The position numbers and the translations under genes were made by a program. A DNA stretch of 64,000 bases from the IMG/VR virus record IMGVR_UViG_3300018933_000001, positions 82,538 through 146,537 of that record; one strand, given 5' to 3'. This stretch comes from a virus. Position 1 is the stretch's first letter. Each line of letters begins with the position of its first letter. A model generated the notes under the pieces. That model saw only the letters and a list, made by a program, of their open reading frames with translations, was not told where the DNA came from and made no database searches. This document shows, one piece after another, positions 4,151 through 18,893 of this stretch.

Positions 4151-4171
4151 TTACTAGAAGGGGAGAAGTAA

Positions 4172-4753
4172 ATGACATATAAACACTTTGAGTATGAAAA
4201 GCAACAGATAGCGAATAGTTGGAGTGCTGATGCTAATAATCAAGAACTCTGGAAATTAGTTCAAGATATGTTGACTTATATCAAAGAAAAGGAATCTGGG
4301 ACTATTATAACTGAGAAAGAAGTACAGAAGAAAATGGAACAAGAAATCCTAATGAAAACAAGAGGGGTATACAAATATGTAACTTCTTGCTATTACAAAG
4401 ATAATACATCTACTAAGAATGCTTTGGTTCAAGTAGGTTACTTAGATTTAGATGACAACATTGTTTTCAATGAGCCAGATAAAGAATTTGTAGGTAAGCC
4501 AGACACATTAGTTAGATATCTCCCGGGTTTCATGGTTAGAGGATATCGTAGTTGTGAGGAATGCGTACCGATTACCAACTCTCATAACGGTAAAGATACT
4601 AGAGAAATTAATGAAGTGATTAGTAATAGTAGCGTTATTCATTACTCTCCTTCTACTTATGGTAGCTCTCCTAAAGTAACTTATGCCATTATTGGTTACT
4701 TGAACGAAGACGGGGAACTTGTCTACTACAACCAAATAGCTAACAAAGAGTAA
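4172..4753 (+). CDS. Hypothetical protein, modules A+B
   Basis: VQDMLTYIKEKE; VQVGYLDLDDNIVFNEP...IIGYLNEDGELVYYNQI. Confidence 0.8.
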   Translation: MTYKHFEYEKQQIANSWSADANNQELWKLVQDMLTYIKEKESGTIITEKEVQKKMEQEILMKTRGVYKYVTSCYYKDNTSTKNALVQVGYLDLDDNIVFNEPDKEFVGKPDTLVRYLPGFMVRGYRSCEECVPITNSHNGKDTREINEVISNSSVIHYSPSTYGSSPKVTYAIIGYLNEDGELVYYNQIANKE

Positions 4754-4856
4754 TTAGTAGTTTAAGAGAGGAGGTTACTAACTCTCTATTAGAAAAAGGA
4801 AGGAATAGTGACTAATCCAAACAATCCACTTAACTTAATAGAGTTCGATTTAGGGA

Positions 4857-5324
4857 GTGAAGAAGATGAATAATAAAGAAAGACTAAGAATCCACAAACT
4901 GCATTATGCTAGTTTAGCCGAAAAAATTAAAGATGATAAAGACTTAACTAATCTCATAGAATGGTTAATTTCTGACCTTGAATCTTATGTTAAAAGAGAA
5001 GAAGAGTTATTCGACATTGAGAATCACATTCTTCGGATTGATTATAGAGATTACAAGTTCAAGATTTATTTAGACGCTGAAAGAAATACTTTAGTTGGAG
5101 ATGTTCTACTAAATGATGAAATAGATGTAATTGGGTTGGAATCTGATTCTCTTACTAATTTACTAAACGAACTGGAAAGCGAAGTAGACGAACAAATTAA
5201 TTACAGATACCAAAGTCAACTAGCAAAAGAGATTATTCAATATCAAGACAGAATAAAAGAGTTAGAACAAGAGATAAAAAAGAAACAGTATTCTGAACCA
5301 ATGTGGATTTATTGTGGAGGTTAA
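4857..5324 (+). CDS. Module A plus HicB-like domain protein
   Basis: YRDYKFKIYLDAERNTLVGDV...DVIGLESDSLTNLLNELESEVDE matches the HicB N-terminal consensus. Start may be ATG 4866. Confidence 0.65.
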   Translation: MKKMNNKERLRIHKLHYASLAEKIKDDKDLTNLIEWLISDLESYVKREEELFDIENHILRIDYRDYKFKIYLDAERNTLVGDVLLNDEIDVIGLESDSLTNLLNELESEVDEQINYRYQSQLAKEIIQYQDRIKELEQEIKKKQYSEPMWIYCGG

Positions 5325-5327
5325 ATA

Positions 5328-5552
5328 ATGATTACTAAGATAATGAAATTCAAATGTGAATGTAACGGTTACGTCTTAGTTCTTGAAGAAATAGAGAAAA
5401 ACTGTTATAAAACTTTCTGCTATGAAATACCTTATTTCTGTGAAGAACTCTGGAAAGCAGATTTAAACACTATCATTGGTAGCTTTGTTCTAAAAGTATC
5501 AGGAATTAAAAGAAACGAAGAAAAAACAATCCGCATAGTTACTAGAGATTAG
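5328..5552 (+). CDS. Small protein with a divergent HicB-like domain
   Basis: GGAGG RBS; CNGYVLVLEE...YKTFCYEI...IIGSFVLKV. Confidence 0.5.
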   Translation: MITKIMKFKCECNGYVLVLEEIEKNCYKTFCYEIPYFCEELWKADLNTIIGSFVLKVSGIKRNEEKTIRIVTRD

Positions 5553-5580
5553 TCTTGTACCTTTCTTTTTAAGAAACACT

Positions 5581-5814
5581 ATGAGAAAACCTACTTTGCC
5601 TGAAGCTGCATTTTTAGCTGTTACTTCTACTACAGCGGTAGTATCTAGTGCAATTTTAGTACCAGAAATAGCTGAAGAAGTTGGACAAGCTATGCAACAA
5701 GCTGCTCAATCTTCAACTCCTGAAAATGATTTTAATAACGGGTATTTAGCTGGAGGTATTACAGTTGCTTCTGGTGTTGGAGCTGTAATGTATAAAAAAG
5801 CTAACGAACCTTAA
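5581..5814 (+). CDS. Small membrane protein
   Basis: Two hydrophobic Ala/Gly/Val-rich segments. Confidence 0.65.
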   Translation: MRKPTLPEAAFLAVTSTTAVVSSAILVPEIAEEVGQAMQQAAQSSTPENDFNNGYLAGGITVASGVGAVMYKKANEP

Positions 5815-5925
5815 GTAAATAGTCAAGGGTGCATATATTAATCAATTAACTTAAGAGGATAAATGGATTTCTGTAAAAAATAGTCGCTACAGAAGCTAGA
5901 AAAGGAATACTGAGGAGAAAACAGA

Positions 5926-6318
5926 ATGACTAAATATCAAGAGTTTCAAGAAAAAATGAAAAATGTCCCTACTGTCTGTGGTTATGATTCCAAAGATGTA
6001 GTAGCACTAAAATATAAACAGTTATTAGAAAAAGTCTTAGAAGAATTCAAACTATTAGAAGACAATTTAGAGTGGAGAAGAAAAGTTGAAGCTAAAGAAT
6101 GGGGAGATGATGATATTGATTACTTTGAGTCAGGTGAAGAAAGAAAAGTATGGGATGAACTGATGAAACAGAAAATAGAAGAAACTAAGACTAATCCACC
6201 TTGCCACAATCTAGTATCAAAAATACTCAAGAACAATCCTCAAGTAGTTGATGAGCTTTTTCAACTGTTATCTGATTTCAAATTCAAAGTAGAAGAAGGT
6301 ATTGGTGAGGAAGAATAG
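5926..6318 (+). CDS. Hypothetical protein, modules A+D
   Basis: GAGGAG RBS; C-terminal ILKNNPQVVDELFQLLSDFK. Confidence 0.75.
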   Translation: MTKYQEFQEKMKNVPTVCGYDSKDVVALKYKQLLEKVLEEFKLLEDNLEWRRKVEAKEWGDDDIDYFESGEERKVWDELMKQKIEETKTNPPCHNLVSKILKNNPQVVDELFQLLSDFKFKVEEGIGEEE

Positions 6319-6372
6319 AAAGAGTTATTAGGGTGCTTTTACTAAACTAACCAAAACAAGAGATAGAAAATT

Positions 6373-7002
6373 ATGAAACCTCAAGAGCGACTAGAAAAAC
6401 TTACAGAATCTATTGAAAAGACAAAAGAAATTATTAGACTAAATAAAAATATAGATGATTCTACACCAATAGATTACTGGGAACTATGGTTAGACCAACA
6501 AGAATATGCAAGAAAAGATTTAGTACAAGAGATAGCAAAAGAGAGTAAAGAAATGAAAGAAGGACTCAGAACCCTAAATACCTTAATTACTTACAAAGGC
6601 TACGAACTATTAGTAGAAGTAGTACATTTTATTCCTGAGAAATCTTATAACTTAGAGAAAAGACATATTCCTAGTGGTTATACTACTTATGGTGGAAAAT
6701 GCAAAGAGATTAATTTTGTTAAAGGTCTTTGTTTAGAACTTCATGAATTAGCAGATGAATTTAAGAAAGCTGTCAACGAGAAGCTGAAGCTAGACAAAGA
6801 AAAGATAGAAGAACCTAAAAATAAAACTGTTAACCATCTTAGAACACAATTAGATAGATTAGCTCAAAGAGATAAAGAAGTTAACTTTACACCGTTTGAG
6901 TTAAGAGGACAGTTAATAGAGATATATCATTTGTTTGGTAAGATTCTAGGTATAACTTTAGATGATATTTATAGATACTACTTTGAGAGAGCTGAGAAAT
7001 AA
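6373..7002 (+). CDS. Hypothetical protein with a central HicB-like domain
   Basis: ITYKGYELLVEV...YGGKCKEI...LHELADEFKKAVNE. Confidence 0.65.
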   Translation: MKPQERLEKLTESIEKTKEIIRLNKNIDDSTPIDYWELWLDQQEYARKDLVQEIAKESKEMKEGLRTLNTLITYKGYELLVEVVHFIPEKSYNLEKRHIPSGYTTYGGKCKEINFVKGLCLELHELADEFKKAVNEKLKLDKEKIEEPKNKTVNHLRTQLDRLAQRDKEVNFTPFELRGQLIEIYHLFGKILGITLDDIYRYYFERAEK

Positions 7003-7064
7003 ATAAGTAAAAGAGGGAGCTATTAAACTCCCTTAAACATCTTAAAAACTAAGAGGAATAAATA

Positions 7065-7358
7065 ATGGCTAAGAAAGTATTTAAATATAGTGATGATAAC
7101 GGCAAGTTTGTAGAAGTAGGAGTATTAACAGATAGCGAAGAAGTAATATTCCACGAACCAATTAGAGGAAGAATGACTTGTATTGCTCTGTATTATCCAG
7201 ATTTCTACATTCAAAAAGAAGACGGAGAATATGATGAAGTATTACCTACTAAAATTAGAAGAGAGATTATTACTAATATAGAGGGGCTGAATTATACCCT
7301 TGGTTATATTGACCATAACGATAAAGTTGTATTTTATGACCAATATCTAGCTAACTAA
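7065..7358 (+). CDS. Hypothetical protein, module B only
   Basis: GAGGA RBS; VEVGVLTDSEEVIFHEP...LGYIDHNDKVVFYDQY. Confidence 0.8.
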   Translation: MAKKVFKYSDDNGKFVEVGVLTDSEEVIFHEPIRGRMTCIALYYPDFYIQKEDGEYDEVLPTKIRREIITNIEGLNYTLGYIDHNDKVVFYDQYLAN

Positions 7359-7371
7359 TAGGACAAAACTT

Positions 7372-7761
7372 ATGACTCTGGAATCTCTCACTGCTAAGTT
7401 ACTTACAGACCCTGAAGTTAAGAGACATTACGAGGAGATGAAGATGGAATTTAACATTGCTAAAGAAATCATTAAACTTAGAACCAAGTTCGGATTAACC
7501 CAAAGACAATTAGCAGAGAAAGTAGGTATTAAACAACCTCAATTGGCTAGGATTGAAACAGGTAAACAGTTAGCTAGATTGGATACTTTGAAATTGATAG
7601 CTGAAAGTATGGGTTATTCAGTAGAAATCAGATTGGTTCCTCAAGAAACAGAACAAACAGCAGAAGAATTTGAAGAAGAGTATCATCGCAGAATAACTAG
7701 AGTAGAAAATGGAGAGGATGATGAGAATTGTTGGATTGAATATCCTACTAGAGAAGAATAA
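7372..7761 (+). CDS. XRE-family HTH protein (antitoxin-like)
   Basis: LLTDPEVKRHYEE...IAKEIIKLRTKFGLTQRQLAEKVGIKQPQLARIETG, typical of XRE partners of RelE/Gp49-like toxins. Confidence 0.85.
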   Translation: MTLESLTAKLLTDPEVKRHYEEMKMEFNIAKEIIKLRTKFGLTQRQLAEKVGIKQPQLARIETGKQLARLDTLKLIAESMGYSVEIRLVPQETEQTAEEFEEEYHRRITRVENGEDDENCWIEYPTREE

Positions 7762-7779
7762 CTTATTAGGAGAAAATAA

Positions 7780-8037
7780 ATGGTTGCTAGTTATATCAAC
7801 GGTCAGAATGAGAGATTTTTTGTTATAGAAGACTACACTATTAATGGATTTAATATCCAAATAGATAAGAAAGAAGCTACTGAAGAGTTCTATGGTAAAA
7901 TATATAACTCTTATGAGCCTTATGATTTAATCAAGACTATGAAAGATTTAGATTTAGAGAATCTAAAAAATAGTATTAAGGATTATACTTATAAGCTAAT
8001 TTTATTAGGGAACTCTTTAATAATGAGTAATTACTAA
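7780..8037 (+). CDS. Small protein with a divergent HicB-like domain
   Basis: AGGAG RBS; INGFNIQID...FYGKI...DLENLKNSIKDY. Confidence 0.55.
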   Translation: MVASYINGQNERFFVIEDYTINGFNIQIDKKEATEEFYGKIYNSYEPYDLIKTMKDLDLENLKNSIKDYTYKLILLGNSLIMSNY

Positions 8038-8130
8038 TTTTTAAATAACTAATAGGAAGAGGTAGATTATTATTCAAGATATTTTTAGATTCTTTTCTAA
8101 ATTTAACTGAAATAATAACTTACCATCCTC

Positions 8131-8193
8131 ACTGCTACTTTTTTATTAATCTCTGGGTATACCGACTTTAGAGATTCTAAAAAATTACCGCAA
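8131..8193 (-). repeat. 63-bp element, copy L (inverted relative to R1 and R2)
   Basis: ACTGCTACTTTTTTATTA...TACCGCAA; 42/63 ungapped identity to the reverse complement of 10053-10115 (hand count). Abuts the helicase stop codon. Confidence 0.85.
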
Positions 8194-9981
8194 TTATTCT
8201 TCTAAGATTTCCATAACTTTAACTGTCTTTCCATCTATCCGGATACTCTTAGTTCTAGTAGAGCAATACTGAGTAACATCGCTAGCCTTACCTTTCTTGC
8301 TTAGATGTAATCGAGTATAAACGTCATTAACTACAGTTTTGAGATGAGGTAGAGTATAAACCTCTCCTACTACTAACAATCTGTTTAACTCAGATTTGAT
8401 ACACTGTTGAATATCTACGTTTTTAAACTTGAGTTCGTTCTTAAGTCTATCAGGTAGATAGTTAACAGCTTTCATTCTCTCAGCACCTAGCTGCTCATAA
8501 CTTTCTTTGATGAGGGGGAATCTATCTCCTAAATAGACCCTCTCATTTTCATTTTCTATATAACTAATGCAATTAGACTTAAAAGACTTACTGCTCAATC
8601 TATGAATAAAGCTATTCTCATTCTGAACGTTAACAAAGTCTTGGTCGTTAGCTAGTTCAAATCCAGCTTCAACATAAGCTTCTCTAACACTCAGACCATC
8701 ATGATAAACGTTACTAGAGACTTCCCATCTTCTCTTATCATTGAGCATCATATACTTATTGAAGTAGAGTTCTCCATCTGTTCCTTTACTAATATAATTG
8801 TCATCAGAATAGCCGTATCTAGTATTGCTTTCCCAGTCTATTAAAAAAGCTTTCTGTTCAGACTCATTACCTTTATGATAGAGAGATAGTAGATTAGTAG
8901 TTTGCTCTACTTTGGTTTTAATTAATTCATCAAACTCTTCTTGAGATAGCAAGCTAGCATCAGTATTATAAAGATGATAAATTTCCTTTCTGAACGGATT
9001 AGTAAGAGTTCTGATTCTACCAGCTATCTGTCTAATATCTGTATCAATACTAATTAAAGTGTTCTTATTTTGAGTGTTACTAACGACGTAGATAACTCCA
9101 GTTTCAGAATAGAAGTCGCATCCTTTAAATGCAGTAGATGTAATAAAGTTGAATTTCTTCTCTGGGTCAAGTGCTTTCTCTATCTGAAATATATCCATCT
9201 TGCTTTGGTTGACTTTGTTGTTAGCACAAATAACTCTAACTTCACTAGGACGTAAATCAGCAGCTTCAATGATGTTTAGAATAGAGTTAACTGAATTAAC
9301 AAAGAAATAAGCAGATTTTGAATAATGACCGTTAGGCATTTTAATACCTTCATCACCAGCAGCTTTATAAGCTTCAATAATATTACAAGCTAACTGGTAA
9401 GGTTTATTAGTTTTCTTGCGTTCTACTTTGACTTTGGTGTATTCTCCCCAGTTAATCTGATACTCATCTAATCCTTTCAAACATTCAGGATAATACTCAG
9501 ACTTAATAGGAGTAGCAGAAATATAAGTAACATAATCAAATTCTTGAACTGAATTTAACAATCTATCTATTGCAGCATCTCTATATGAGTAAGCGTCTAG
9601 CAAATCAGAAAACTCATCTACTAAAACTCTGTATTTATCTTTGTTATTAGAAGATAACAGTCTCGAAACTCTATCAAAACTATCATAAGTAACCATTATC
9701 TTTGGGACTTTAGTAGTGTTGATATAGCTAACTAAATCTCTCTCTTTAATACCACCATAAAAACCAAATATCTTCTCAGCTCTCCTTTTATTTGGATACT
9801 GGTCTACTTTGTTTCTAATTATCTCAATAGTGGGAACTGCTAAGATATAGGGGTTTTGGTCTTCAAGAGCTAATACTGATGCTCCTACACCAGTTTCGTG
9901 TTTATCAATTATACCTTTTGGTAGTTCAGTCATAAACTCTGAACAGTAACGGGAATTAGGAGGTGCGTCGATGATTATCAT
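8194..9981 (-). CDS. SF2 helicase-fold protein with degenerate Walker A; putative origin-binding or replication protein
   Basis: Motifs TGVGAS (I, no Lys), AVPT (Ia), VTYDSF, VDEFS (II), SAT (III), TSTAFKGCDF (V), QIAGRIR (VI). Confidence 0.8.
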   Translation of the reverse strand: MIIIDAPPNSRYCSEFMTELPKGIIDKHETGVGASVLALEDQNPYILAVPTIEIIRNKVDQYPNKRRAEKIFGFYGGIKERDLVSYINTTKVPKIMVTYDSFDRVSRLLSSNNKDKYRVLVDEFSDLLDAYSYRDAAIDRLLNSVQEFDYVTYISATPIKSEYYPECLKGLDEYQINWGEYTKVKVERKKTNKPYQLACNIIEAYKAAGDEGIKMPNGHYSKSAYFFVNSVNSILNIIEAADLRPSEVRVICANNKVNQSKMDIFQIEKALDPEKKFNFITSTAFKGCDFYSETGVIYVVSNTQNKNTLISIDTDIRQIAGRIRTLTNPFRKEIYHLYNTDASLLSQEEFDELIKTKVEQTTNLLSLYHKGNESEQKAFLIDWESNTRYGYSDDNYISKGTDGELYFNKYMMLNDKRRWEVSSNVYHDGLSVREAYVEAGFELANDQDFVNVQNENSFIHRLSSKSFKSNCISYIENENERVYLGDRFPLIKESYEQLGAERMKAVNYLPDRLKNELKFKNVDIQQCIKSELNRLLVVGEVYTLPHLKTVVNDVYTRLHLSKKGKASDVTQYCSTRTKSIRIDGKTVKVMEILEE

Positions 9982-9985
9982 TGAG

Positions 9986-10040
9986 TTGCGGAAGTTTTGT
10001 TTACAACTCTATTGTATCAGAGATTATTTAAAAAGTAGCA
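9986..10040 (+). repeat. Element copy R1 (55 bp), overlapping the helicase promoter
   Basis: TTGCGGAAGTTTT...CAGAGATTATTTAAAAAGTAGCA; the last 23 nt are 21/23 identical to the reverse complement of 8133-8155. Confidence 0.8.
10011..10019 (-). promoter_or_regulatory. Extended -10 promoter for the helicase-like gene
   Basis: Minus strand reads TGATACAAT (TGnTAxAAT), about 30 nt upstream of the ATG at 9981. Confidence 0.6.
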
Positions 10041-10052
10041 TCTTAAGAGAAT

Positions 10053-10115
10053 TTGCGGAACTTTTTATTAATCTGTGGGTTTAGTGGATTTAGCCAGTAA
10101 TAAAAAAGTAACAGT
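10053..10115 (+). repeat. 63-bp element, copy R2
   Basis: TTGCGGAACTTTTTATTA...TAATAAAAAAGTAACAGT with an internal inverted repeat. Confidence 0.85.
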
Positions 10116-10145
10116 AAAAAGGAAACAGAATCTATTAATAATGAA

Positions 10146-10448
10146 ATGGAATACAGAGACTTTACCTTACAAATTACAGTAGACTCAGATGATGAGTGTG
10201 TAATTGGAGAAATAAAACAGTTAGTAGGTTTAAATGAAAGTAAGTATAAGTTCTCAGCTAAAACGATATCTGAATTAAAGAAAAAATTTTATCAGCTAAT
10301 AGATGAAAGAATTGAGGAATTAGGGCAAGATGTCTTTGGAGATATTTACAGTGGAGGAGACGATAAAGTTCCCCAGAAGTTATTAGATATTTTAAAGACT
10401 GACTACGACGAGTATATGATGATGAATCCTAAATTCTATTTATTTTAA
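10146..10448 (+). CDS. HicB-like domain protein
   Basis: MEYRDFTLQITVDSDDECVIGEI...FSAKTISELKKKFYQLIDE is the closest copy to the HicB consensus. No RHH or HTH tail. Confidence 0.7.
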   Translation: MEYRDFTLQITVDSDDECVIGEIKQLVGLNESKYKFSAKTISELKKKFYQLIDERIEELGQDVFGDIYSGGDDKVPQKLLDILKTDYDEYMMMNPKFYLF

Positions 10449-10454
10449 ACAATA

Positions 10455-10531
10455 GTGGAGTGTAGACTTTTTCTAAAATTTGTACTTACATATAGTCCGC
10501 AGATTTCAAGAAATGTCTACATTCTATTTTT
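10455..10531 (+). ncRNA. Long rod-like RNA hairpin (sRNA, RNase III site or terminator)
   Basis: Four stacked helices (10455-67/10515-27, 10470-74/10509-13, 10476-83/10499-506, 10484-86/10494-96) with five G-U pairs, followed by a T-run. Confidence 0.5.
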
Positions 10532-10719
10532 GACCCGAAAGTTAAAATAAATAGCTTATAAGTGAGGTACGAGCTAAATACAGAGTAGAGGATTAATAAA
10601 TTGTGTCAGTCCTTAGAAATTTATTCTAAAGTGGTAGAAATAAAATGAATTATTATAGCCAATAGTCAAGTAGAAAACAGTCTCGAAACGAGTTCTTACG
10701 AGTTAAAAAACTTCTACCA

Positions 10720-10728
10720 TGCTATAAT
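10720..10728 (+). promoter_or_regulatory. Extended -10 promoter for tRNA-Lys
   Basis: TGCTATAAT, 11 nt upstream of the tRNA. Confidence 0.75.
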
Positions 10729-10739
10729 TTAAATAACTA

Positions 10740-10811
10740 GGAACCTTGACATAGTGGTTGTGTAGCTGGCTTTTAACCAGTGTTAGGAAGGTTCGATTCC
10801 TTCAGGTTCCA
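10740..10811 (+). tRNA. tRNA-Lys(UUU)
   Basis: GGAACCT/AGGTTCC acceptor stem, GCTGG-CTTTTAA-CCAGT anticodon arm, GAAGG-TTCGATT-CCTTC T arm. No encoded CCA. Confidence 0.93.
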
Positions 10812-10839
10812 TTTTTTAATTGAATAAGAGGAAAAGTTC

Positions 10840-11247
10840 ATGCACAAAGGTAAACATAGATTTTCTTACCGAAATTCAGCTATCCAAATAGTAGAGTTTA
10901 TCGATTTTGATAGTGAAGAGATTAGATATGTTACAGATGTCCTTCCTCATAGCTACGATAGTTTAGACTCTTTAATTTCTGATTACAAGAGGTTGATAGA
11001 TAAGAGATTAGAACCTAAAAGAAGAAAGGAAGAAGATGATTTTGATGAAAGGTCAATCTACTATAAAGACCAAGAATTAGAACTAGAAAGAGATATTGTT
11101 ACAGGAAAGGTAGTAGGAGGTAAAACTTATGATTTGTATTCTGAGAGAATGTTTAGACCTTTAGTTAGATTTAAAGGTAAATTAAAAGATTTACGCAGAC
11201 AGTTTGAGAAATACGTAGATGATTATGAGAAGTATTTAATCAAGTAG
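10840..11247 (+). CDS. Protein with two divergent HicB-like domains
   Basis: YRNSAIQIVE...DYKRLIDKRL and YKDQELELER...RRQFEKYVDDY. Confidence 0.6.
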   Translation: MHKGKHRFSYRNSAIQIVEFIDFDSEEIRYVTDVLPHSYDSLDSLISDYKRLIDKRLEPKRRKEEDDFDERSIYYKDQELELERDIVTGKVVGGKTYDLYSERMFRPLVRFKGKLKDLRRQFEKYVDDYEKYLIK

Positions 11248-11286
11248 AGACAAACAAAAAAGTCACATCTATTGAGGGAGAGATAA

Positions 11287-11670
11287 ATGATTACAGAAAC
11301 TTTAGTTATCTTACACGAAAGTAAAGAATGTCCTTGGTCAGATGCTAGAGAATATAGTTGGTACACTAAACATCCAGTAATTAAACGAGTAGGATTTACT
11401 TATAAATCAGATTCTATATTTGGAGGTTCTTATGTTAGAAGTTACTCAAAAACTCATGGAAAAGAAAGTGGTTATATCCCTACTCCAGTATTAGAGAAAC
11501 TTAATTGTGTTTATGAGGAAGAAAAAGAAAAATCTGTTGAAGAACAAGTTAGATACGGACAAAAAATATTAGCTCAAGATTTATTTAACGCTATGCTTCG
11601 TTATTATCCAGAAGCTTTACCAGAAGTAATTAAGTTGTTAGCAAATTTGAAAGCCCGGCTTGAAAAATAG
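11287..11670 (+). CDS. Hypothetical protein with C-terminal module D
   Basis: GAGGGAG RBS; LFNAMLRYYPEALPEVIKLLANLK. Confidence 0.75.
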   Translation: MITETLVILHESKECPWSDAREYSWYTKHPVIKRVGFTYKSDSIFGGSYVRSYSKTHGKESGYIPTPVLEKLNCVYEEEKEKSVEEQVRYGQKILAQDLFNAMLRYYPEALPEVIKLLANLKARLEK

Positions 11671-11700
11671 ATTACACAATCAATACCGAGGAAGAATAAG

Positions 11701-12018
11701 ATGACTAACTTAGATATAACTTTACCACAGTTCCATTTACTACTAGATCATTACTTAATATCTAAAGACTTAAAGAATAGATTTACTGTTGAAGGGAAAA
11801 ATGTAATATTCAAAGCATTAGTAGAAAAACATTCACACATGATTTGGACAATAGAAGAGATATGTAATGAATATACTGAATTATCTTTAGTTGATTTTTC
11901 TAATAAGTATGCTATAGAAGCAGATGAAGAAGTTATTGACAATTATTTATGTCAAGAAAGTAGTTATGCTTTAGGTTTTACTAAAGATACAGTAGTATTT
12001 CAAGATGTTATTGAGTAA
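11701..12018 (+). CDS. Hypothetical protein
   Basis: GAGGA RBS, 105 aa. Confidence 0.75.
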   Translation: MTNLDITLPQFHLLLDHYLISKDLKNRFTVEGKNVIFKALVEKHSHMIWTIEEICNEYTELSLVDFSNKYAIEADEEVIDNYLCQESSYALGFTKDTVVFQDVIE

Positions 12019-12073
12019 AATAAATGATTGTCCGGGATTTTTAGAAGAAGTGAGTTAGGAGAGGAAAGTAGAG

Positions 12074-12700
12074 ATGCTAAAAAAATACTGTGATATTAAC
12101 TATCGCGGACATTTATTAGAGATTGAAGAAAATGAGTATGTACCAGGAAAATTTAATTATAAAGGTAGTTCCAGAGATAAAATTTTATTTCTAGTTTATC
12201 CATATACATTAGAACAAGTTATCAATAGGTTTAGAAGCGCAGTAGATGATATCTTAGGAGAAAGAATTAGAGAAGGAGATAGTCAATTAGTTCTTACTCT
12301 TATCTATAAAAAGTATGAATTGGAGATTTATCAAAGTAATGCACAAAGAACTTATTCAGCTTTTTTACAAAGTTTAGATTTTGCTACTTGGAGTAATTTA
12401 GGTTATGTTTCTATAATTAAAGCTTTTATACAAAGAGTTGAGGATAGATTAAATGGTTTAGATGATGCTCCTATTCAGACTATTTATAATTATAAACAGC
12501 ATCAATTAGTAATTAGAAAACAAGGACTACTATATACTGGTATCTCTTGTGTTCATGGAGAATCTTGGAGACATCAAAGTCATGATTGGGATTTTTTAAT
12601 CAGATGGTTTAAGTCAGATATTGGTGAATTCTCAGATGAGGAGGAAGAGCCACAATTAGTTGAAATGGCTGAGAATTTAGGACTTTACGAATATTTTTAG
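12074..12700 (+). CDS. Protein with three HicB-like repeats
   Basis: YRGHLLEI..FRSAVD, YKKYELEI..FIQRVE, YKQHQLVI..FKSDIG; C-terminal LVEMAENLGLYEYF. Confidence 0.65.
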   Translation: MLKKYCDINYRGHLLEIEENEYVPGKFNYKGSSRDKILFLVYPYTLEQVINRFRSAVDDILGERIREGDSQLVLTLIYKKYELEIYQSNAQRTYSAFLQSLDFATWSNLGYVSIIKAFIQRVEDRLNGLDDAPIQTIYNYKQHQLVIRKQGLLYTGISCVHGESWRHQSHDWDFLIRWFKSDIGEFSDEEEEPQLVEMAENLGLYEYF

Positions 12701-12709
12701 GAGAAGTTA

Positions 12710-13243
12710 ATGAGTAAGTATCAGCACTATAAAAAAGAATTAGAAGATGCCGTTGAATTTATAAATGATATAGGATGTTATGGCTGGTTAGGTGATGGAG
12801 CAAAAAGTTTAGAGAAAATAGCTAAAGAAATGCTATCTACTATTCGAGAGCTAGAACCAGTAGAGATTGACCCAGAGTTCTTTGATTGGCAAAGTAGAAA
12901 GTTTACTCTATATCCTTTAAGCACTAGCATTAGAGAAGTGTATAAAGAGAAATCTGACGGTACAAGAGTTCAAGTAGGGTTATTTTATAATAATGAAAAT
13001 TTAGCTCTTTACAAACCTAGTAAGTTAAGAAGTCCTACAGGTAATCCTAGTTACATTGAAGGATTAAATTGGTCTACTTATTGGTTTTATTTAGATGAGA
13101 CTAATAAGAAAGTAAAATTTACACCTTCTAATAGAATCCATGAGATATTTGAAGACCCTTGGAGTACCTATGAGTTTAATGCTTTAGGTTATAAGACTCC
13201 TAACGGTACTATTGTTCACTATGATTCTTATATTGAGGAATGA
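12710..13243 (+). CDS. Hypothetical protein, modules A+B
   Basis: KEMLSTIRELE; VQVGLFYNNENLALYKP...LGYKTPNGTIVHYDSYI. Confidence 0.8.
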   Translation: MSKYQHYKKELEDAVEFINDIGCYGWLGDGAKSLEKIAKEMLSTIRELEPVEIDPEFFDWQSRKFTLYPLSTSIREVYKEKSDGTRVQVGLFYNNENLALYKPSKLRSPTGNPSYIEGLNWSTYWFYLDETNKKVKFTPSNRIHEIFEDPWSTYEFNALGYKTPNGTIVHYDSYIEE

Positions 13244-13246
13244 GAA

Positions 13247-13579
13247 ATGAAAATAAGTGCTGAGTATGAAGGCTTCACTCTAAATATCGAGGAATATTCT
13301 GATAAAGAAGGTGGAATTTACTGGAAAGCTACTTGTAACGAATTAAATAGTTATACCTTTTGTTTTTATCCTAGGCTTTATAGGAGTTTAGATGGTGGCA
13401 TTTCTACATTCAAACGAGAAGTAGTTTTAGCTAAGAAACAGTTAGAGGAACAACACCAAATATTAGATGAGAGATTTGCTCTCGATGCTGCTGCGTTTTT
13501 TAGTAATGATGAAGATAGTGAGATGAAGGAAGAAGATATTCTCCAATTTCCCATTAAAGGTACTAATCCTAGATTTTAA
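13247..13579 (+). CDS. HicB-like domain protein (frame continues past the TAA)
   Basis: EYEGFTLNIEE...YWKATCNEL...STFKREV. Confidence 0.6.
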   Translation: MKISAEYEGFTLNIEEYSDKEGGIYWKATCNELNSYTFCFYPRLYRSLDGGISTFKREVVLAKKQLEEQHQILDERFALDAAAFFSNDEDSEMKEEDILQFPIKGTNPRF

Positions 13580-13801
13580 GGTAAGATTGTACATTATCTC
13601 ATTTGGTGGGAAAAAGGTGAAGATAGAGACTTTGTAGGTGAAAAGAAATTAGTTAACACATCAATTCCTAACAAAGAAATAGAAATTGAAACTTTTGAAT
13701 TTATTAAAGGTTGGAGTTTTAAAGAGGGGACAGATTACTATAAAATAATTATCAATAATAAAGAAGTTAAGTTTAGTCCAAAAGAAGTATTTTTCTCTTG
13801 A
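13580..13801 (+). pseudogene. In-frame continuation after premature TAA (73 codons)
   Basis: ...AGA TTT TAA GGT AAG ATT... then open (GKIVHYLIWWEKGEDRDF...EVFFS*) up to the next gene. Confidence 0.55.
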
Positions 13802-13803
13802 TT

Positions 13804-14127
13804 ATGGGATATTGGATAGATAGAAGAAAAGAAGAAGACGCAGAAATTGCGGGAGTATTGGTGAGTATATTTCCTAGAGGAGGAGAGTGTATGGGAAAAG
13901 TAGTACCAAAATCAGCTAACCCAAGTTCTGATGAAAATATTATACCTAACTCTTTCCCAACTCAAGGGAAAGAAGAACCTCCAGATGATGTTAAATACAA
14001 TGAAGAATGGTGGAAATGGTATTGTAAAGAAAATAACTTAGATGTGAGTTCAGGTAAAAGTTTAAGAGGTGGTAGTTCTAGAGATATTATTAGTTACGAA
14101 GATGTTCAAGATTATTTATCTTTCTAA
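13804..14127 (+). CDS. Hypothetical protein
   Basis: ORF track entry 13798; ATG at 13804. Confidence 0.65.
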   Translation: MGYWIDRRKEEDAEIAGVLVSIFPRGGECMGKVVPKSANPSSDENIIPNSFPTQGKEEPPDDVKYNEEWWKWYCKENNLDVSSGKSLRGGSSRDIISYEDVQDYLSF

Positions 14128-14130
14128 GTC

Positions 14131-14289
14131 ATGAATAGTAGTTTCTTCCATCAGGGTTATGAGTTACTAATAGTCAAAGATAATTGTATTTATTACGGTC
14201 TTTGCAGAGGGTTAGGTTATTCTAGTAACTCAGATAATGAGCAAGAGTTGAAGAATGATTTTGTTAAATATGTTGGTGGAGTAGTTTAA
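14131..14289 (+). CDS. 52-aa stand-alone HicB-like domain (not in ORF track)
   Basis: MNSSFFHQGYELLIVKDNCIYYGLCRGLGYSSNSDNEQELKNDFVKYVGGVV. Confidence 0.7.
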   Translation: MNSSFFHQGYELLIVKDNCIYYGLCRGLGYSSNSDNEQELKNDFVKYVGGVV

Positions 14290-14484
14290 TGAAAAATAGT
14301 ATGTATTGATAATTACAATCGAGAGTCTAGAGCAGATGTTCTAATTGCAGAAAATGTTCACAAGTATTTTGGTGAAATAATAGTTGAGTTACTGAATAAA
14401 AGAGAAGGAGATAGCACTGATGACTTCTTTGTTCTTAAAGAAGATGATTATAAGTTGTGGAAAGGAATGGAAGAGTTGATTTAG
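14289..14484 (+). pseudogene. Small phage protein frameshifted by one extra A after the start codon
   Basis: ATG AAAAA TAGT; removing one A gives the 64-aa MKIVCIDNYNRESRADVLIAENVHKYFGE...DDYKLWKGMEELI, coupled by TAATG to the upstream gene. Confidence 0.7.
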
Positions 14485-14508
14485 TTATTATTTAGTGGTA
14501 GAAAAACT

Positions 14509-14670
14509 ATGATATATAATCACAAAGGTTACGAATTAGTTATTACTTATAACTCAGAATCCGGATTGTGGGAAGGTAATTGTAAGTCTTTAGGTATTTA
14601 TGTAATAGCTAGAACTCAAGGATTGTTAGAAAGTAGTTTTCGTGAAAGAGTTGATGATATGGGAAAGTGA
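14509..14670 (+). CDS. 53-aa stand-alone HicB-like domain (not in ORF track)
   Basis: MIYNHKGYELVITYNSESGLWEGNCKSLGIYVIARTQGLLESSFRERVDDMGK. Confidence 0.75.
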   Translation: MIYNHKGYELVITYNSESGLWEGNCKSLGIYVIARTQGLLESSFRERVDDMGK

Positions 14671-15608
14671 ATAAAATGATATATAGATTTAGAACTAATT
14701 ACAAAGGACACGATTTAGATATCCAAAAGAAAAAAGATAGTGATAAATATATAGGAACCTCTACTTTCTTAAATAACAGATGGAACCATGAAGATTATAG
14801 TGTAGATTTCATTATAAAAAGACATCAGATTGAGATAGATAGAATAGTGGAGCAGCAGAAGAAAATGATAGGAAAGACTTATGAGGAAGTTTATCGTGAG
14901 TGGAGAGGTAATACAAAGGTAATTACTTATAAAAATTGTAAGATGCTTATTACTGCCAGAAAAAGAGCTAAGGATAATCGAATAGTGTATTTAGGAGAGT
15001 TTAGTAAGGACAGATATAAAACTTGGATTAGAACTAGCATTGAAAGCATTCATTACGATAAAGTAATTGCTAAGTTTGAGAGATTTGTGGATGAGTATTG
15101 TACTGATTGGGGAGTTAAGGCTGTATTACAGTATAAAGGTTATGAGATAAAGATTTGCAGAGAAGTGGGTTGTAAGGAGTTCTATTTTGGAAGTGTTCAG
15201 TTTCATAAGAATTCTACTTTTAAACATATTGCAGATACTAGAGAAGAAGTAGAAAGATGTTGTAAAAATAGAATAGATAAAGTGATTTATGAGAAGGAAA
15301 AAGTAAAAATAATTAGTCCTAGGAACGAAAAGATTAAAGAATTAGAAGAGTTGCTAACTAGAATATCTACTCAACTAGAAGAACTGAAAAAAGAGAAAGA
15401 TACTTTAACTTATAAGGGAGTAGTTTTAGAGATAGATACTATACCTGATAGATACGGAAGGGTTAAAGGTCTTCTTAGAAATATTTCTAATCCCGCACCT
15501 TTTGTAGAAGATAATTTAGAGAACTTAAAGAAGTCATTCGAGAGTTATGTAGATAAGCTAGAGAACCAGTACCTTTTATTTTGTAAGTTAACTGGTAGAG
15601 ACTCTTAA
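14667..15608 (+). CDS. Protein with four HicB-like repeats
   Basis: YKGHDLDI, YKNCKMLI..FERFVDEY, YKGYEIKI..CKNRIDK, YKGVVLEI..LKKSFESYVDKL. Confidence 0.7.
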   Translation: MNKMIYRFRTNYKGHDLDIQKKKDSDKYIGTSTFLNNRWNHEDYSVDFIIKRHQIEIDRIVEQQKKMIGKTYEEVYREWRGNTKVITYKNCKMLITARKRAKDNRIVYLGEFSKDRYKTWIRTSIESIHYDKVIAKFERFVDEYCTDWGVKAVLQYKGYEIKICREVGCKEFYFGSVQFHKNSTFKHIADTREEVERCCKNRIDKVIYEKEKVKIISPRNEKIKELEELLTRISTQLEELKKEKDTLTYKGVVLEIDTIPDRYGRVKGLLRNISNPAPFVEDNLENLKKSFESYVDKLENQYLLFCKLTGRDS

Positions 15609-15629
15609 AATCTAGTTAAATAGTTAAGT

Positions 15630-15664
15630 AAGAGAGTTAGGAAGTCTTAGCTCTCTTTTATTTT
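15630..15664 (+). terminator. Intrinsic terminator
   Basis: AAGAGAGTTAGG-AAGT-CTTAGCTCTCTT followed by TTATTTT. Confidence 0.8.
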
Positions 15665-15675
15665 GAGGAGTAGAA

Positions 15676-16006
15676 ATGGGCAATATTATTTATTACTTTC
15701 AGAGGTTATAACTTAGAGTATTATCCTCAACCTAACAATACTTATTGGGGTATTTGCAGAAAGTTAGGTACTAGAGTAAGAGAAGATACTTTAAAGTTAC
15801 TAGAATGGAAATTTCATCAGAGAGTAGATTCTATTAACTATCTTGTTTACTTATTGTGGAGTTGTGACCAAGAAGAATATTACTGTACTAATAGTGACCA
15901 ATACGGAATTGAAGATTTAGTAGAACATTTACCGAAATTAGAAGAAAGGATAAAAGAAATTGAGCGTAGAAATACTATTTTAAATATTGAAATTAAGAAG
16001 CTATGA
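15676..16006 (+). pseudogene. HicB-like gene frameshifted by one extra G after the ATG
   Basis: GAGGAG RBS then ATGGGCA; removing one G gives MAILFITFRGYNLEYYPQPNNTYWGICRKLG...KFHQRVDS...KKL*, which ends ATGA-coupled to the next gene. Confidence 0.7.
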
Positions 16007-16305
16007 CTATTAATACAAGTGCAACATTAATTATTGAGATAAAAGAAGATAGATTTTCTATTCCCTTAACTAATGTAGGTGGCTTTGGGCCGAATAATAA
16101 CTACTACTTAGTTAGAAATAGTGATGAAGTAAAGAGGTTTACTAAGTTTCTAGGATATCTAGATTCAGAAGAGAATGATTGTCCAAAAGTAATGGAAGTT
16201 TATGATGAATCTACTAGAGAGTATAAACATAAATTTAATATATCCAACAAGCTACATAAATTAGAAATTGAGTTTAGATTTAATGAACTTTATGTGGATT
16301 GGTAG
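16003..16305 (+). CDS. Hypothetical protein
   Basis: 100-aa ORF in a tight operon. Confidence 0.7.
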   Translation: MTINTSATLIIEIKEDRFSIPLTNVGGFGPNNNYYLVRNSDEVKRFTKFLGYLDSEENDCPKVMEVYDESTREYKHKFNISNKLHKLEIEFRFNELYVDW

Positions 16306-16307
16306 AA

Positions 16308-16700
16308 ATGAAAATAACTATTTGGGGCAATCAATATCCATTACGTCTAGATACTAGAAATTTATATTTAAGTTTTCCTGGTATTGAGACAATGGAAAGA
16401 AATAAAGAAAAAGAAACAGATTTAGATTACATAACTTTTTATGTTGAGGGACGTTTCTTCAGTATTAGGTTTGATTATACTGAGTTTGGTCTTAAGATAT
16501 TTCCTGAAGTTTATGATTCAGAGCTACAGTTTCTATTTGATAATTTTGATAAAGCTGAGAAGTTTGGTTTGTTTTTTAGAAATGGAGAAATAGTAGAAGC
16601 TGATTCTTACTGGAAAGATGGAGAAATGGTGATTTATAAAAGTAAGTTAGATAAATTGATTGAACTAACAGAAGAAGCTGGTCTTTACGATTATTACTAG
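16308..16700 (+). CDS. Hypothetical protein with LxELxEExGLY tail
   Basis: ATG 16308; C-terminus LDKLIELTEEAGLYDYY resembles the tail of ORF 12074. Confidence 0.7.
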   Translation: MKITIWGNQYPLRLDTRNLYLSFPGIETMERNKEKETDLDYITFYVEGRFFSIRFDYTEFGLKIFPEVYDSELQFLFDNFDKAEKFGLFFRNGEIVEADSYWKDGEMVIYKSKLDKLIELTEEAGLYDYY

Positions 16701-16708
16701 GAAGATTT

Positions 16709-17125
16709 ATGGAAGTTAGACTTATAATTGCTGGTTCTAGAGATTTTAATAATTACGAACTTCTAAAGAAAGAAGTGGATGAGTATTTCTTAAGTATTGT
16801 TAATGACCTTTTTAGTGATTTACCCGTAGGTACTACAAAAGCTATTTATACAAAAATCGTATCTGGTGGAGCTAGAGGTGCGGATAGATTAGGTGAGAGA
16901 TATGCTAGGGAAAGAAGTTTAGCAATTAAACAGTTTATTCCTAACTGGGGGAGTGAAGGTAAGAAAGCTGGTCGCTTAAGAAATGAAGAAATGGCAGAGT
17001 ATTCTAACTACTGCATTTGTTTCTGGAATGGTAGCCCCGGAACTGCCAGCCTGATTAGATTAGCTAAGAAGTATAAATTAGGTTTAAAAGTAGTTAATGT
17101 AGATTCTACTAATGAAAAAGAATAA
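16709..17125 (+). CDS. DUF2493/YspA-like SLOG family protein
   Basis: IIAGSRDFNNY, IVSGGARGADRLGERYA, PNW..GKKAG..RNEEM, SPGT. Confidence 0.88.
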   Translation: MEVRLIIAGSRDFNNYELLKKEVDEYFLSIVNDLFSDLPVGTTKAIYTKIVSGGARGADRLGERYARERSLAIKQFIPNWGSEGKKAGRLRNEEMAEYSNYCICFWNGSPGTASLIRLAKKYKLGLKVVNVDSTNEKE

Positions 17126-17681
17126 TTCTCTCAAAACTCTAACTTCTCATAAATCAGATGAACACAATACTCCAAGTTACATAATAGAAGCTGCTAGAGA
17201 AGTCCTAGGTACTATTGATTTAGATTCAATGTCTAATACTTTGGCTAATGAAACAGTTAAAGCCACGACATTTTACACGAAAGAAGATAATGGGTTGGAT
17301 AAAGATTGGTATGGAAGAGTCTGGTTAAATCCTCCATTCTCTTTAGCAAAGTTAGCTATTCCTAAACTAATAGAATCTTATGAGTCGGGACAAGTAGAAG
17401 AAGCTATATTACTAATCAAATCTGATGTCTCTACTCAAAAATACAAATTGCTTTATCCTTATCCATTTTGTGAATTGAATAAAAGAGTTAAGTTTGAGAA
17501 TGTAGATAATAAAGATTCAGCTCCTTTCCCAGTAGTATTATTCTATTTAGGAAGAAATTATTATAGATGGAATAAAGTAATGAGTAAGCTAGGTAATGTT
17601 CATCCAGGTAATAGATTATTTAATAAATTAGCTATGAATTGTAATATTGATGATTTACGTTATTTAGGAGTAATAGAATGA
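17112..17681 (+). CDS. Phage DNA N6-adenine methyltransferase
   Basis: DEHNTP, IDLD, DNGL..DW.GRVWLNPPFS. Confidence 0.88.
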   Translation: MKKNNSLKTLTSHKSDEHNTPSYIIEAAREVLGTIDLDSMSNTLANETVKATTFYTKEDNGLDKDWYGRVWLNPPFSLAKLAIPKLIESYESGQVEEAILLIKSDVSTQKYKLLYPYPFCELNKRVKFENVDNKDSAPFPVVLFYLGRNYYRWNKVMSKLGNVHPGNRLFNKLAMNCNIDDLRYLGVIE

Positions 17682-17902
17682 GTCTTGATAGAGAAGAGTT
17701 AAAGAGATTAGGTATAAGGTTCCCTTTAATAAAAGAGAGGAAATTACCTAAAGACAACGGGTTTTCGAGTAGAGATTACGTGGAGGATAATCTTGGGGCT
17801 GCTGAATGGTTATTAGATAACTCAGAAATGTTATTAGAAGTGTTAATTAAATATCGTAGAATTACTGGAATTACTTTTAAAGAAGAAAAACCAAGTGAAT
17901 AG
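17678..17902 (+). CDS. Hypothetical protein
   Basis: Translationally coupled 74-aa ORF. Confidence 0.7.
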   Translation: MSLDREELKRLGIRFPLIKERKLPKDNGFSSRDYVEDNLGAAEWLLDNSEMLLEVLIKYRRITGITFKEEKPSE

Positions 17903-18275
17903 TCTAAATGTAAAAAGAATATCTATTAAAGGAAGTCCTAGTCAACCAGACGCAATTTATATAGGTAGAGAGAATAGAACTTATTGTTTGAGGCAAAGTC
18001 CTTTAGCTAATCATTATAAGATAGGTAAAGACGGGACTAGAGATGAAGTAGTAAAGAAATACCGCCAATGGTTGTGGGAAGAAGTGCAGAGAGGAAGAGC
18101 GGTAGAGAATGAGGTTTGGAAAGAGCTAAAGAGTATCTTAAAGGACATTAAGCAGTTAGACTCTGAAGACGATTATATTAGACTAATGTGTTGGTGTAAA
18201 GAAGATGAGAAATGTCATGGGGATATAATTATTAACTGTCTTAATTGGATGAATAAGAGTAACTTAGGAGATTGA
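17895..18275 (+). CDS. DUF4326 domain protein
   Basis: IYIGR, SPLANHY, GTRDEVVKKYRQWL, LMCWCK...CHGDII. Confidence 0.88.
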   Translation: MNSLNVKRISIKGSPSQPDAIYIGRENRTYCLRQSPLANHYKIGKDGTRDEVVKKYRQWLWEEVQRGRAVENEVWKELKSILKDIKQLDSEDDYIRLMCWCKEDEKCHGDIIINCLNWMNKSNLGD

Positions 18276-18276
18276 T

Positions 18277-18573
18277 ATGAAAGTAGCTTTTTTAAGTCCA
18301 GATTCTACTGAGATATGTCTTACTAGATATGATTATTATGATGCAGAAGAGTATGAGCCAAATATAGGACTACGAGATGCTCTGCTAGATTTTTCTAAAA
18401 TGCAAAAGATTAATAGATCTATTTCAGAAGTTCTTGAGAAATTTGGAAATTGGAAAGTATTAGTATCTTGCGAAGAAGTTATAGGTACTAATTGGTATTA
18501 CTCTAATAAGTTTAAAGAACCTAAAACTATTAAAGAGTTGTGCTTAACTAATATCTGGATGTTAGGAGATTAA
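18277..18573 (+). CDS. Hypothetical protein (paralog of 20836)
   Basis: MKVAFL..D...GLRDALLDF versus MKVIFI..D...GFYQALLDF. Confidence 0.7.
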   Translation: MKVAFLSPDSTEICLTRYDYYDAEEYEPNIGLRDALLDFSKMQKINRSISEVLEKFGNWKVLVSCEEVIGTNWYYSNKFKEPKTIKELCLTNIWMLGD

Positions 18574-18575
18574 TC

Positions 18576-18881
18576 ATGATAAAAGAGAAGAAAGCTATTC
18601 AATATAGAGGATTTTATTTAACAGCTTGTTACACAGAAAAAGATAACCCTGGGTATATTGGTACTATCTACTCTAAGGAATTAGACAAGTATAGATGGAA
18701 AACTAATCATTACGGCTACCCAAAAATTATCTATCAGTATCAAATAGATGAAACAATAGACAAAATGAAAGAGGAAGTTGATAAATTTTTAGAAAAATAT
18801 AAAAAGTATCTTGAGTGGAGAATAGAAGAAACAAAACTAGAACTTGATAGGCTGTTATTTCACTTAAATTTTTTATTTTAA
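18576..18881 (+). CDS. HicB-like domain protein
   Basis: IQYRGFYLTACY...YIGTI...KMKEEVDKFL. Confidence 0.6.
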   Translation: MIKEKKAIQYRGFYLTACYTEKDNPGYIGTIYSKELDKYRWKTNHYGYPKIIYQYQIDETIDKMKEEVDKFLEKYKKYLEWRIEETKLELDRLLFHLNFLF

Positions 18882-18893
18882 AAAAAGTAAATT

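Follow-up and report, generated by a model that had tools for sequence, protein, structure and literature searches.

The DNA analysed here, referred to throughout as the window, comprises 64,000 nucleotides (nt) and corresponds to bases 82,538-146,537 of the 146,537-bp IMG/VR virus record IMGVR_UViG_3300018933_000001, which has direct terminal repeats at its ends. The window has a G+C content of approximately 32% and encodes, amongst others, a Mu-type portal, ThyX, an HD-domain protein, a Dam-type methylase, a SLOG protein, a glycosyltransferase and a giant gene of 3,121 amino acids (aa). Positions 2,735-20,487 are occupied by small, densely packed plus-strand genes with a single interruption, a 595-aa gene on the minus strand. 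Within this block, between positions 4857 and 18881, 13 plus-strand genes carry 19 copies of a short repeated unit, which is very probably related to the toxin-binding N-terminal domain of HicB antitoxins, and this family of units is the subject of the present analysis. Positions are those of the window unless given as genome positions, the genome being the complete 146.5-kb record.

The 19 units were marked as listed in a preliminary description of this DNA and aligned with MAFFT, which gave the consensus Y-x-G-x-x-L-x-I ... Y-x-G ... L-x-x-L-x-x-x-F-x-x-x-V-D at pairwise identities of 10-35%. A hand-defined set was needed, because a profile iterated from three alike seeds (14131, 14509 and 15698) recruited no further units at E < 0.05. 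A profile of the 17 best window units was used to search 1.84 billion representative proteins; 130 units were excised from the foreign matches, and the 77 with less than 40% identity to any window unit were kept for a foreign-unit profile. The search space in the genome was its 1,106 six-frame open reading frames (ORFs). The top 22 matches of the foreign-unit profile were the 19 window units, all at the places first described, and three units outside the window, with all 22 on the plus strand. Sixteen of the 19 window units scored at iE ≤ 0.003 (best 4e-15), and the profile ranked all 19 above noise. When each unit was left out in turn and sought amongst the six-frame ORFs with the remaining window units only, 9 of the 19 were recovered at iE ≤ 0.0024, six of them at first rank. 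Over 149 units the signature positions were conserved as Y 91%, K/R 87%, L 72%, I/V 84%, G 91%, F 85%, V/I 96% and D 83%, in agreement with the recurring motif originally proposed. The low pairwise identity, and the E values above 0.05 obtained for the other units with the three-seed profile, could be taken to mean that the repeat is no true domain family but arises by chance or from the composition of AT-rich small ORFs. This explanation is refuted by the foreign-unit profile, which places 22 units above all noise and none on the minus strand, by a profile alignment to HicB antitoxins (E 2.7e-9) and by a confident structure model, both presented below; the family is also kept in related phages, and a chance origin appears extremely improbable.

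All unit genes lie on the plus strand and are described here in order, with the score of each unit (iE) against the profile of 77 foreign units. Orthologues are those of a sister phage of 150 kb, IMGVR_UViG_3300022891_000002. The gene at 4857..5324 (155 aa; orthologue at 66% identity) carries a unit at aa 58-116 (nt 5028-5204, iE 2.1e-8), followed by a helical heptad-like tail. The adjacent 74-aa gene (5328..5552) has a tentative Cys-rich unit at nt 5343-5507, with an iE of 0.02 that is above all noise, and has no orthologue in the sister phage. In the 209-aa gene at 6373..7002, an N-terminal helix precedes a unit with an insert of ~20 aa (nt 6577-6783, iE 1.9e-6) and a C-terminal 'FTPFELRGQLIEI..LTLDDIY..YFER' tail. 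This tail of ~50 aa (window 6820-7002), with the fuller pattern 'FTPFELRGQLIEI..LF..IL.LTLDDIY..YFER', is shared with L003:205-1002 and with the relatives P0014, P0055, P0056 and P0074; it gave no Pfam match and nothing usable from the ESM Atlas. The 85-aa gene at 7780..8037 has a tentative unit (nt 7828-8004, iE 0.086), and its homologue on metagenome contig L012 contains a canonical YKGF unit (YYYKGFEISI..., E 3.5e-5). A 100-aa gene (10146..10448) begins with its unit (nt 10146-10322, iE 6.8e-14), which ranked first in the leave-one-out search. Two units are present in the 135-aa gene at 10840..11247, one tentative (nt 10855-11013, iE 0.034) and one at nt 11050-11238 (iE 2.5e-4), and three tandem units in the 208-aa gene at 12074..12700 (nt 12089-12265, 12290-12454 and 12473-12637; iE 5.7e-9, 4.4e-6 and 0.0018). 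The 110-aa gene at 13247..13579 joins a unit (nt 13253-13450, iE 3.9e-5) to an acidic tail.

The following two genes consist of a single unit each: 14131..14289 (52 aa, iE 2.5e-10), which is of the GxCxxL type and a clear paralogue of 14509 and 15698, and 14509..14670 (53 aa, iE 4.2e-15), the product of which was modelled as described below. The 313-aa gene at 14667..15608 has four units (nt 14688-14855, 14913-15101, 15117-15287 and 15396-15572; iE 9.9e-6, 7.3e-5, 4e-5 and 3.9e-10), the last of which is preceded by a heptad-like helix at aa ~215-243, and this order of units is retained in at least 13 database clusters. Between this gene and the next lies a terminator-like hairpin with a 12-bp stem and a T run (15630-15657), one of only two terminator-like plus-strand sites in the 18 kb. 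The next gene had been placed at 15676. The unit is indeed present (nt 15698-15847, iE 2.7e-9), followed by a helical tail, but the ATG at 15676 (MGNIIYYFQRL, then stop; 15676-15712) is one base out of frame with the ORF that encodes it, which spans 15674..16006. Intact orthologues, which start MTDNIYTFRGYELE..., are present both in the sister phage and on contig L007 and indicate a one-base change in the run ATTATTTATTAC at this locus. Such a change could reflect an error of assembly, a recent pseudogene, or a frameshift or unusual start. The last gene of the window set (18576..18881, 101 aa, orthologue at 51% identity) has a unit with a long insert (nt 18591-18803, iE 0.003) and a helical tail.

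The family had been confined to positions 4857-18881. While the 19 units do lie there, the foreign-unit profile extends it to three further plus-strand genes, at genome 19566 (50 aa), 43117 (152 aa) and 53408 (265 aa), and marginally to genome 76045, where an iE of 0.35 is level with the first noise match (0.38). The genome total is thus 22-23 units in 16-17 genes. The copies at 5328 and 7780 and the first unit of 10840, which had been flagged as tentative, are indeed the weakest of the 19. Architectures include units that make up the whole protein (14131 and 14509), rows of two to four (10840, 12074 and 14667) and fusions to tails, of which those of 4857, 14667, 15698 and 18576 read as heptad-like helices; relatives elsewhere carry in addition a 'LYAIHPDYW' tail, or a second paralogous family of the phage that is described below.

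The relationship of these units to HicB was assessed by profile comparison. Thirty homologues of P0070, a protein retrieved by the database search, were aligned as a HicB reference; those with names are annotated as 'type II toxin-antitoxin system HicB family antitoxin' or 'HicB family RNase H-like nuclease'. When 17 window units were compared with this alignment using hhalign, a match of 96.2% probability (E 2.7e-9) was obtained over 54 columns, covering HicB positions 10-63, which belong to the N-terminal domain. The window-unit profile matched only 75 protein clusters amongst the 1.84 billion proteins, and of these relatives 27 match phrog_9151, 'HicB-like antitoxin' (best 5e-36), three match PF21748 (UPF0150-like) and two match PF05534. 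The latter two are ordinary bacterial antitoxins, P0070 with one unit and P0049 with two tandem units, each followed by a ribbon-helix-helix (RHH) domain and each encoded directly downstream of a PF07927 hicA gene. The P0049 arrangement is present on four contigs (L028-L031), and its two tandem units after hicA imply that genuine HicAB modules, too, can have this domain duplicated in tandem. The copy at genome 43117 (L001:860-1318), outside the window, matches phrog_9151 at 2.7e-17 and, by tblastn, the annotated HicB of Burkholderia phage ST79, which adjoins HicA.

A structure was predicted with AlphaFold2 for the 53-aa product of 14509, the one unit modelled, from a 39-row alignment that included canonical HicBs, and reached a predicted local distance difference test (pLDDT) score of 95.1. 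The model has a b-b-b-b-a topology, with strands at 8-15, 20-25 and 30-34 and a helix at 37-52, together with an extra N-terminal strand. It displays the three-stranded sheet packed on one helix, a partial RNase H-like fold, that is the feature of HicB N-terminal domains, and the unit fold is accordingly predicted to be three or four beta strands and one helix in ~50-70 residues. Residues 6-53 of the model were scanned against 48,161 PDB chains, and HicB/UPF0150 structures matched overall at Z 4.6-6.1 with root-mean-square deviations of 1.3-2.3 A. These included 2yzt (Z 6.1, 1.3 A, 47 residues), TTHA1013 1wv8 (Z 5.5) and the N-terminal domain of Burkholderia HicB, 6g1c/6g1n (Z 5.4/5.1, 1.4-1.5 A; 6g1c over 47 residues), with further matches to 3kwr, 2dsy, E. 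coli HicB3 6u0i and the antitoxin 3k6q. The HicB-like fold that the preliminary description had asked about is thus supported by a superposition on HicB N-terminal domains at 1.3-1.5 A. The best match amongst viral structure models was a 'HicB family' protein at a template modelling (TM) score of 0.75. Foldseek against the PDB returned nothing at E ≤ 0.001; SH3 domains were on top, with 2yzt at TM 0.71 and 6g1c at TM 0.59. A single-sequence AlphaFold2 prediction of the 313-aa four-unit protein gave a pLDDT of 36.6.

Several of these results weigh against a HicB identity. Only three of the 13 window proteins match phrog_9151, and weakly, at E 0.0016-0.0049 within profile positions 3-65 (4857 at 0.0049, profile positions 5-57; 10146 at 0.0027; aa 245-312 of the 14667 protein at 0.0016), and the other ten fail to reach it at E ≤ 0.1. 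The Pfam HicB models PF15919, PF21748 and PF05534 gave no match at E ≤ 1 amongst the 13 unit proteins and nothing in the whole genome at E ≤ 10, and NCBIfam gave nothing for five window unit proteins and L001:860-1318. The top structural match of the 14509 model was MmoD, with double-stranded RNA-binding domains (dsRBDs) and assorted inhibitor proteins also at Z 4.3-5.2, and Z values of 5-6.6 lie in a range where small common folds match by arrangement alone, which makes them weak on their own. PDB sequence searches with unit profiles and with L001:860-1318 likewise retrieved no HicB structure. PF05534, for its part, seems to model the RHH half, because the canonical-like L001 copy misses it also. 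When joined to the sequence evidence, the matches of the predicted structure agree with a HicB N-terminal identity. On the strength of the hhalign result, the retrieval of PF05534 HicBs beside hicA and the match in fold, we hold with high confidence that the unit and the toxin-binding N-terminal domain of HicB are homologous, as had originally been suggested.

The remaining parts of a HicAB module were sought in the phage. PF07927 had no match at E ≤ 1 in the whole 146.5-kb genome, with control genomes positive, and a profile of 32 HicA proteins gave a best E of 1.2 across the same genome. The absence of a HicA-like toxin noted earlier is hence borne out, with no cognate hicA elsewhere in the genome. 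Family-model scans also found no helix-turn-helix (HTH) or RHH domain amongst the 13 unit proteins, in accord with the earlier remark that no copy has the HicB DNA-binding tail; the XRE-type genes 2735 and 7372 are separate genes, not fused to units. With neither HicA nor a DNA-binding half, these loci lack what defines a HicAB module but retain its toxin-binding domain. A missing DNA-binding tail is not unusual by itself, because compact Class 1/2 HicBs also lack one, and these are still found beside hicA (Gerdes 2024, PMC10865869). A phage-encoded antitoxin homologue with no toxin is one feature of the orphan-antitoxin class of counter-defence genes, and the units have this feature. Directly after the canonical-like HicB-unit gene at genome 43117, positions 43314-44368 of the genome (L001:1315-2369) encode an orphan colicin-immunity-like gene (PF09204, 9e-15) and a leucine-rich-repeat protein (LRR_4, 1e-22); the PF09204 gene is, from its family match, a putative further toxin-less 'antidote' gene of the phage.

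Comparison with the reference alignment indicated that the surface of the units has diverged. Canonical YKGY-type HicBs keep a near-invariant GKIEGINDLVTFEG stretch, which is lost in most units of the window family, and many units have in its place a family-specific motif, G-x-C-x-E-[LI]-x-[YF]. Residues of the HicA-HicB interface have been described (PMC6159526). Because many units swap the canonical GKIEGINDL surface for their own GxCxEL motif, their targets need not be HicA. Canonical HicB is approached most closely by the units of 4857, 10146 and genome 43117 (L001) and by the last unit of 14667. The isoelectric points (pI) of the units range from 4.1 to 9.7, most being acidic or neutral, and no basic patch is shared.

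Related phages were then compared. The sister phage contains ~17 units, several with no counterpart here, and a 151-kb contig from a third phage carries a gene of five units and one more unit gene. For six of the 13 unit genes in the window, no reciprocal best hit was obtained in the sister phage. Median identity was 56% for the nine unit genes that do have an orthologue and 68% for 153 other orthologue pairs (Mann-Whitney p 0.007). On contig L007 (404-1756, P0001), the three-unit array of 12074 type and the array of 14667 type form one six-unit protein, flanked by 14509-like and 15676-like genes. This shows directly that arrays have fused or split while the order of genes was retained. Judged from these sequences, the units show clear signs of duplication, shuffling and turnover, and the genome comparison shows their predicted copy content and sequence to change faster between related phages than the rest of the genome. 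The family is rare, as the 75 clusters amongst 1.84 billion proteins indicate. In IMG/VR the 313-aa protein had a match in the sister phage alone, 185,579 species genomes gave none, and cultured phages gave no DNA match and no match to this four-unit protein.

Other genes of the block were noted in the course of this comparison. The 595-aa gene at 8194-9981, which has no family match and is the sole minus-strand gene of the block, is 95% identical to its sister-phage counterpart, against 46-68% for its neighbours, which suggests a recent exchange or a mobile cassette. At the repeat settings used, no pair of 63-bp inverted repeats was recovered around it. Inside the block, positions 16709-18275 encode a SLOG/YspA-like protein (PF10686, 5e-12), a Dam-type N6-adenine methylase (PF05869, 2e-14) and a DUF4326 protein (1e-18). 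A second paralogous family is likewise expanded in this phage, with the signature '...VG.L....(I/V)IF..P ... GY.....VVFYDQY' and ~10 copies in the genome. Its copies in the window are at 2226-2720, 2735-4150 (C-terminus), 4172-4753, 7065-7358 and 12710-13243, and further copies are at genome 21973, 23484, 23830, 25096 and 28084. In gene 2735 this domain sits behind two XRE HTH domains, and in the relative P0018 it is fused behind three HicB-like units.

With regard to function, we favour the reading that the units form a lineage-specific family of small protein-binding inhibitors or neutralisers of host toxins or defences, to which we assign a probability of about 0.5. This role is favoured because of the ancestry of the domain, the lack of toxin and operator-binding parts, the turnover between sister phages, the adjoining PF09204 gene and the precedents for orphan antitoxins; the N-terminal HicB domain is known to neutralise HicA while the DNA-binding half varies (PMC11594946), and phages use orphan antitoxin homologues against toxin-antitoxin defences (PMC11825919, PMC13716836; review PMC11594946). 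In the mechanism envisaged, the unit genes would be expressed from the dense plus-strand block of small non-structural genes, and each unit would mask the active surface of its host target, much as HicB does with HicA. In true HicBs a DNA-binding domain provides dimerisation; here, rows of units and coiled-coil tails would increase valency instead, and a broader range of targets would arise through duplication, shuffling and divergence of the unit surface. HicA would be the likely ancestral target of the set of binders. The canonical-like units (4857, 10146, the last of 14667 and genome 43117) may still bind host HicA-type RNases, and the derived GxCxEL-type units are probably aimed at other targets.

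A number of points count against this functional assignment. The units share only conserved core residues, so a common ligand is not implied. The extra divergence of the unit genes is modest. Early expression of the small-gene block is probable from gene layout alone, with the timing assumed, and a promoter scan of the block found fewer promoter-like sites than in shuffled sequence. A complex prediction for the 53-aa unit with a HicA family, using the bacterial hicA beside the two-unit HicB, scored 0.01 in a run without controls and bears on binding in neither direction.

The preliminary description had proposed either a panel of decoys for host HicA-type toxins or a HicB scaffold put to use as a general binder. 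The homology to the HicB N-terminal domain, the fold, the missing HicA and the missing DNA-binding tail support this proposal in part. Its strict version, in which every unit mimics the antitoxin of one of many host HicA paralogues and so blocks HicAB-based abortive infection, draws on the homology of the units to a HicA-neutralising domain (PMC11594946), on a phage with no hicA, on the proposal of HicA as an anti-phage toxin (PMC10865869, PMC13448076) and on the existence of true hicAB modules with small HicBs that have no DNA-binding domain, one of them in a cyanophage (PMC10865869). However, most units lack the near-invariant GKIEGINDLVTFEG stretch and have other motifs, and more than 20 units with a wide pI range and unrelated tails exceed the needs of one toxin family; we therefore consider a pure HicA panel unlikely, and the alternative of a HicB scaffold put to general binding use suits the data no less well. 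Taken furthest, the latter would be a germline 'binder library', in which a HicB-derived scaffold has been multiplied, shuffled and surface-diversified into ~20 inhibitors of many unrelated host toxins and defence effectors, turning over from one sister phage to the other with the defences of the host, an extension that we regard as speculative and rather improbable.

It could also be envisaged that the units have no part in counter-defence and instead serve internal needs of the phage or a general takeover of the host, for example by adapting or regulating enzymes of either, or by binding RNA as dsRBD-like modules. The fold recurs in many viral models (TM 0.7-0.8) and is common amongst uncharacterised small proteins of phages, the structural matches at Z 4.3-5.2 include dsRBDs and assorted inhibitor proteins, the tandem rows recall multi-dsRBD proteins, and the phage holds a second expanded family. 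The a-b-b-b-a topology of a dsRBD, with a helix at the N-terminus and a basic patch where helix 2 begins, was, however, not found in the 14509 model or in the pI values of the units, which are mainly acidic or neutral, and with no N-terminal helix and no common basic patch, RNA binding in the manner of a dsRBD is unlikely. The nearest sequence relatives of known context are, moreover, antitoxins, and fast turnover between sister phages suits conflict genes better than housekeeping, which leaves roles of this kind doubtful. The units might instead be antitoxins for unrecognised toxins of the phage itself, forming hybrid toxin-antitoxin, addiction or exclusion modules with a neighbouring small gene. 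Unit genes are packed against or overlap small genes (13798/14131, 18277/18576, and 15698 with 16003/16299), HicB-like antitoxins pair with non-HicA partners in hybrid modules, and HicAB is functional in phage Adephagia (both PMC11594946). Against this, genes 13798, 18277, 16003, 11701 and 5581 have no sister-phage counterpart, although several of the adjoining unit genes have one, no neighbour matches a toxin family, and rows of three to six units are atypical of antitoxins. As the small genes do not persist alongside their neighbouring unit genes between the two phages, we regard such a pairing as very unlikely.

Single phage HicB-like genes are common, and orphan antitoxins are established as a means of phage counter-defence. 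The new element is an arrayed and shuffled family of ~20 HicB N-terminal copies, and a limited literature search found no description of a HicB-domain expansion in phages. Single phage HicB-like genes are routinely annotated and then ignored, and the part played by HicAB in defence against phages is so far no more than a proposal; a phage lineage that spends ~5 kb of coding sequence on ~20 toxin-less copies offers a direct route to asking what HicB N-terminal domains bind. If host toxins are indeed neutralised, the capture of an antitoxin can grow into a diversified multigene counter-defence repertoire, and the family would provide a natural collection of compact, well-folded binder modules of ~50 residues. 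If other targets are bound, the HicB N-terminal fold would be a general phage inhibitor scaffold.

Amongst known systems, the idea of keeping the antidote half with no toxin to disarm a host defence is shared with T4 Dmd, which acts against RnlA/LsoA, and with the DarG-like AdfA/AdfM, which act against DarTG (PMC11825919, PMC13716836), the likeness here being one of idea only. Dmd, AdfA and AdfM have unrelated folds, are single genes and have proven targets, whereas the present units form a large paralogous family with putative targets. The compact Class 1/2 hicAB modules, one of which occurs in a cyanobacterial phage (PMC10865869), similarly have a small HicB confined to toxin binding and can be phage-borne, but they are bicistronic with hicA, in contrast to a genome that has none. 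The YKGY-type HicBs of type II HicAB systems (P0070 and P0049) share with the units the same N-terminal domain, the Y-K-G...G...F..VD signature and the b-b-b-a core, and P0049, a true HicB, shares the tandem duplication of this domain. They differ in having a hicA partner and a PF05534 ribbon-helix-helix half, where the phage units have neither hicA nor an RHH or HTH domain; the units, for their part, have mostly lost GKIEGINDLVTFEG, number at least 20 per genome, carry coiled-coil-like and other tails and are phage-borne in a block of small genes. The fold of the units is also that of phrog_9151 and the small UPF0150/HicB-fold phage proteins (PF21748 and PF15919; 2yzt, 1wv8, 2dsy, 3kwr and 6g1c), with L001:860-1318 a clear member of phrog_9151 and three window proteins matching weakly over the same profile region. 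Known members of the phrog_9151/UPF0150 type are single genes in each phage, whereas here the family is expanded, arrayed and far more diverged.

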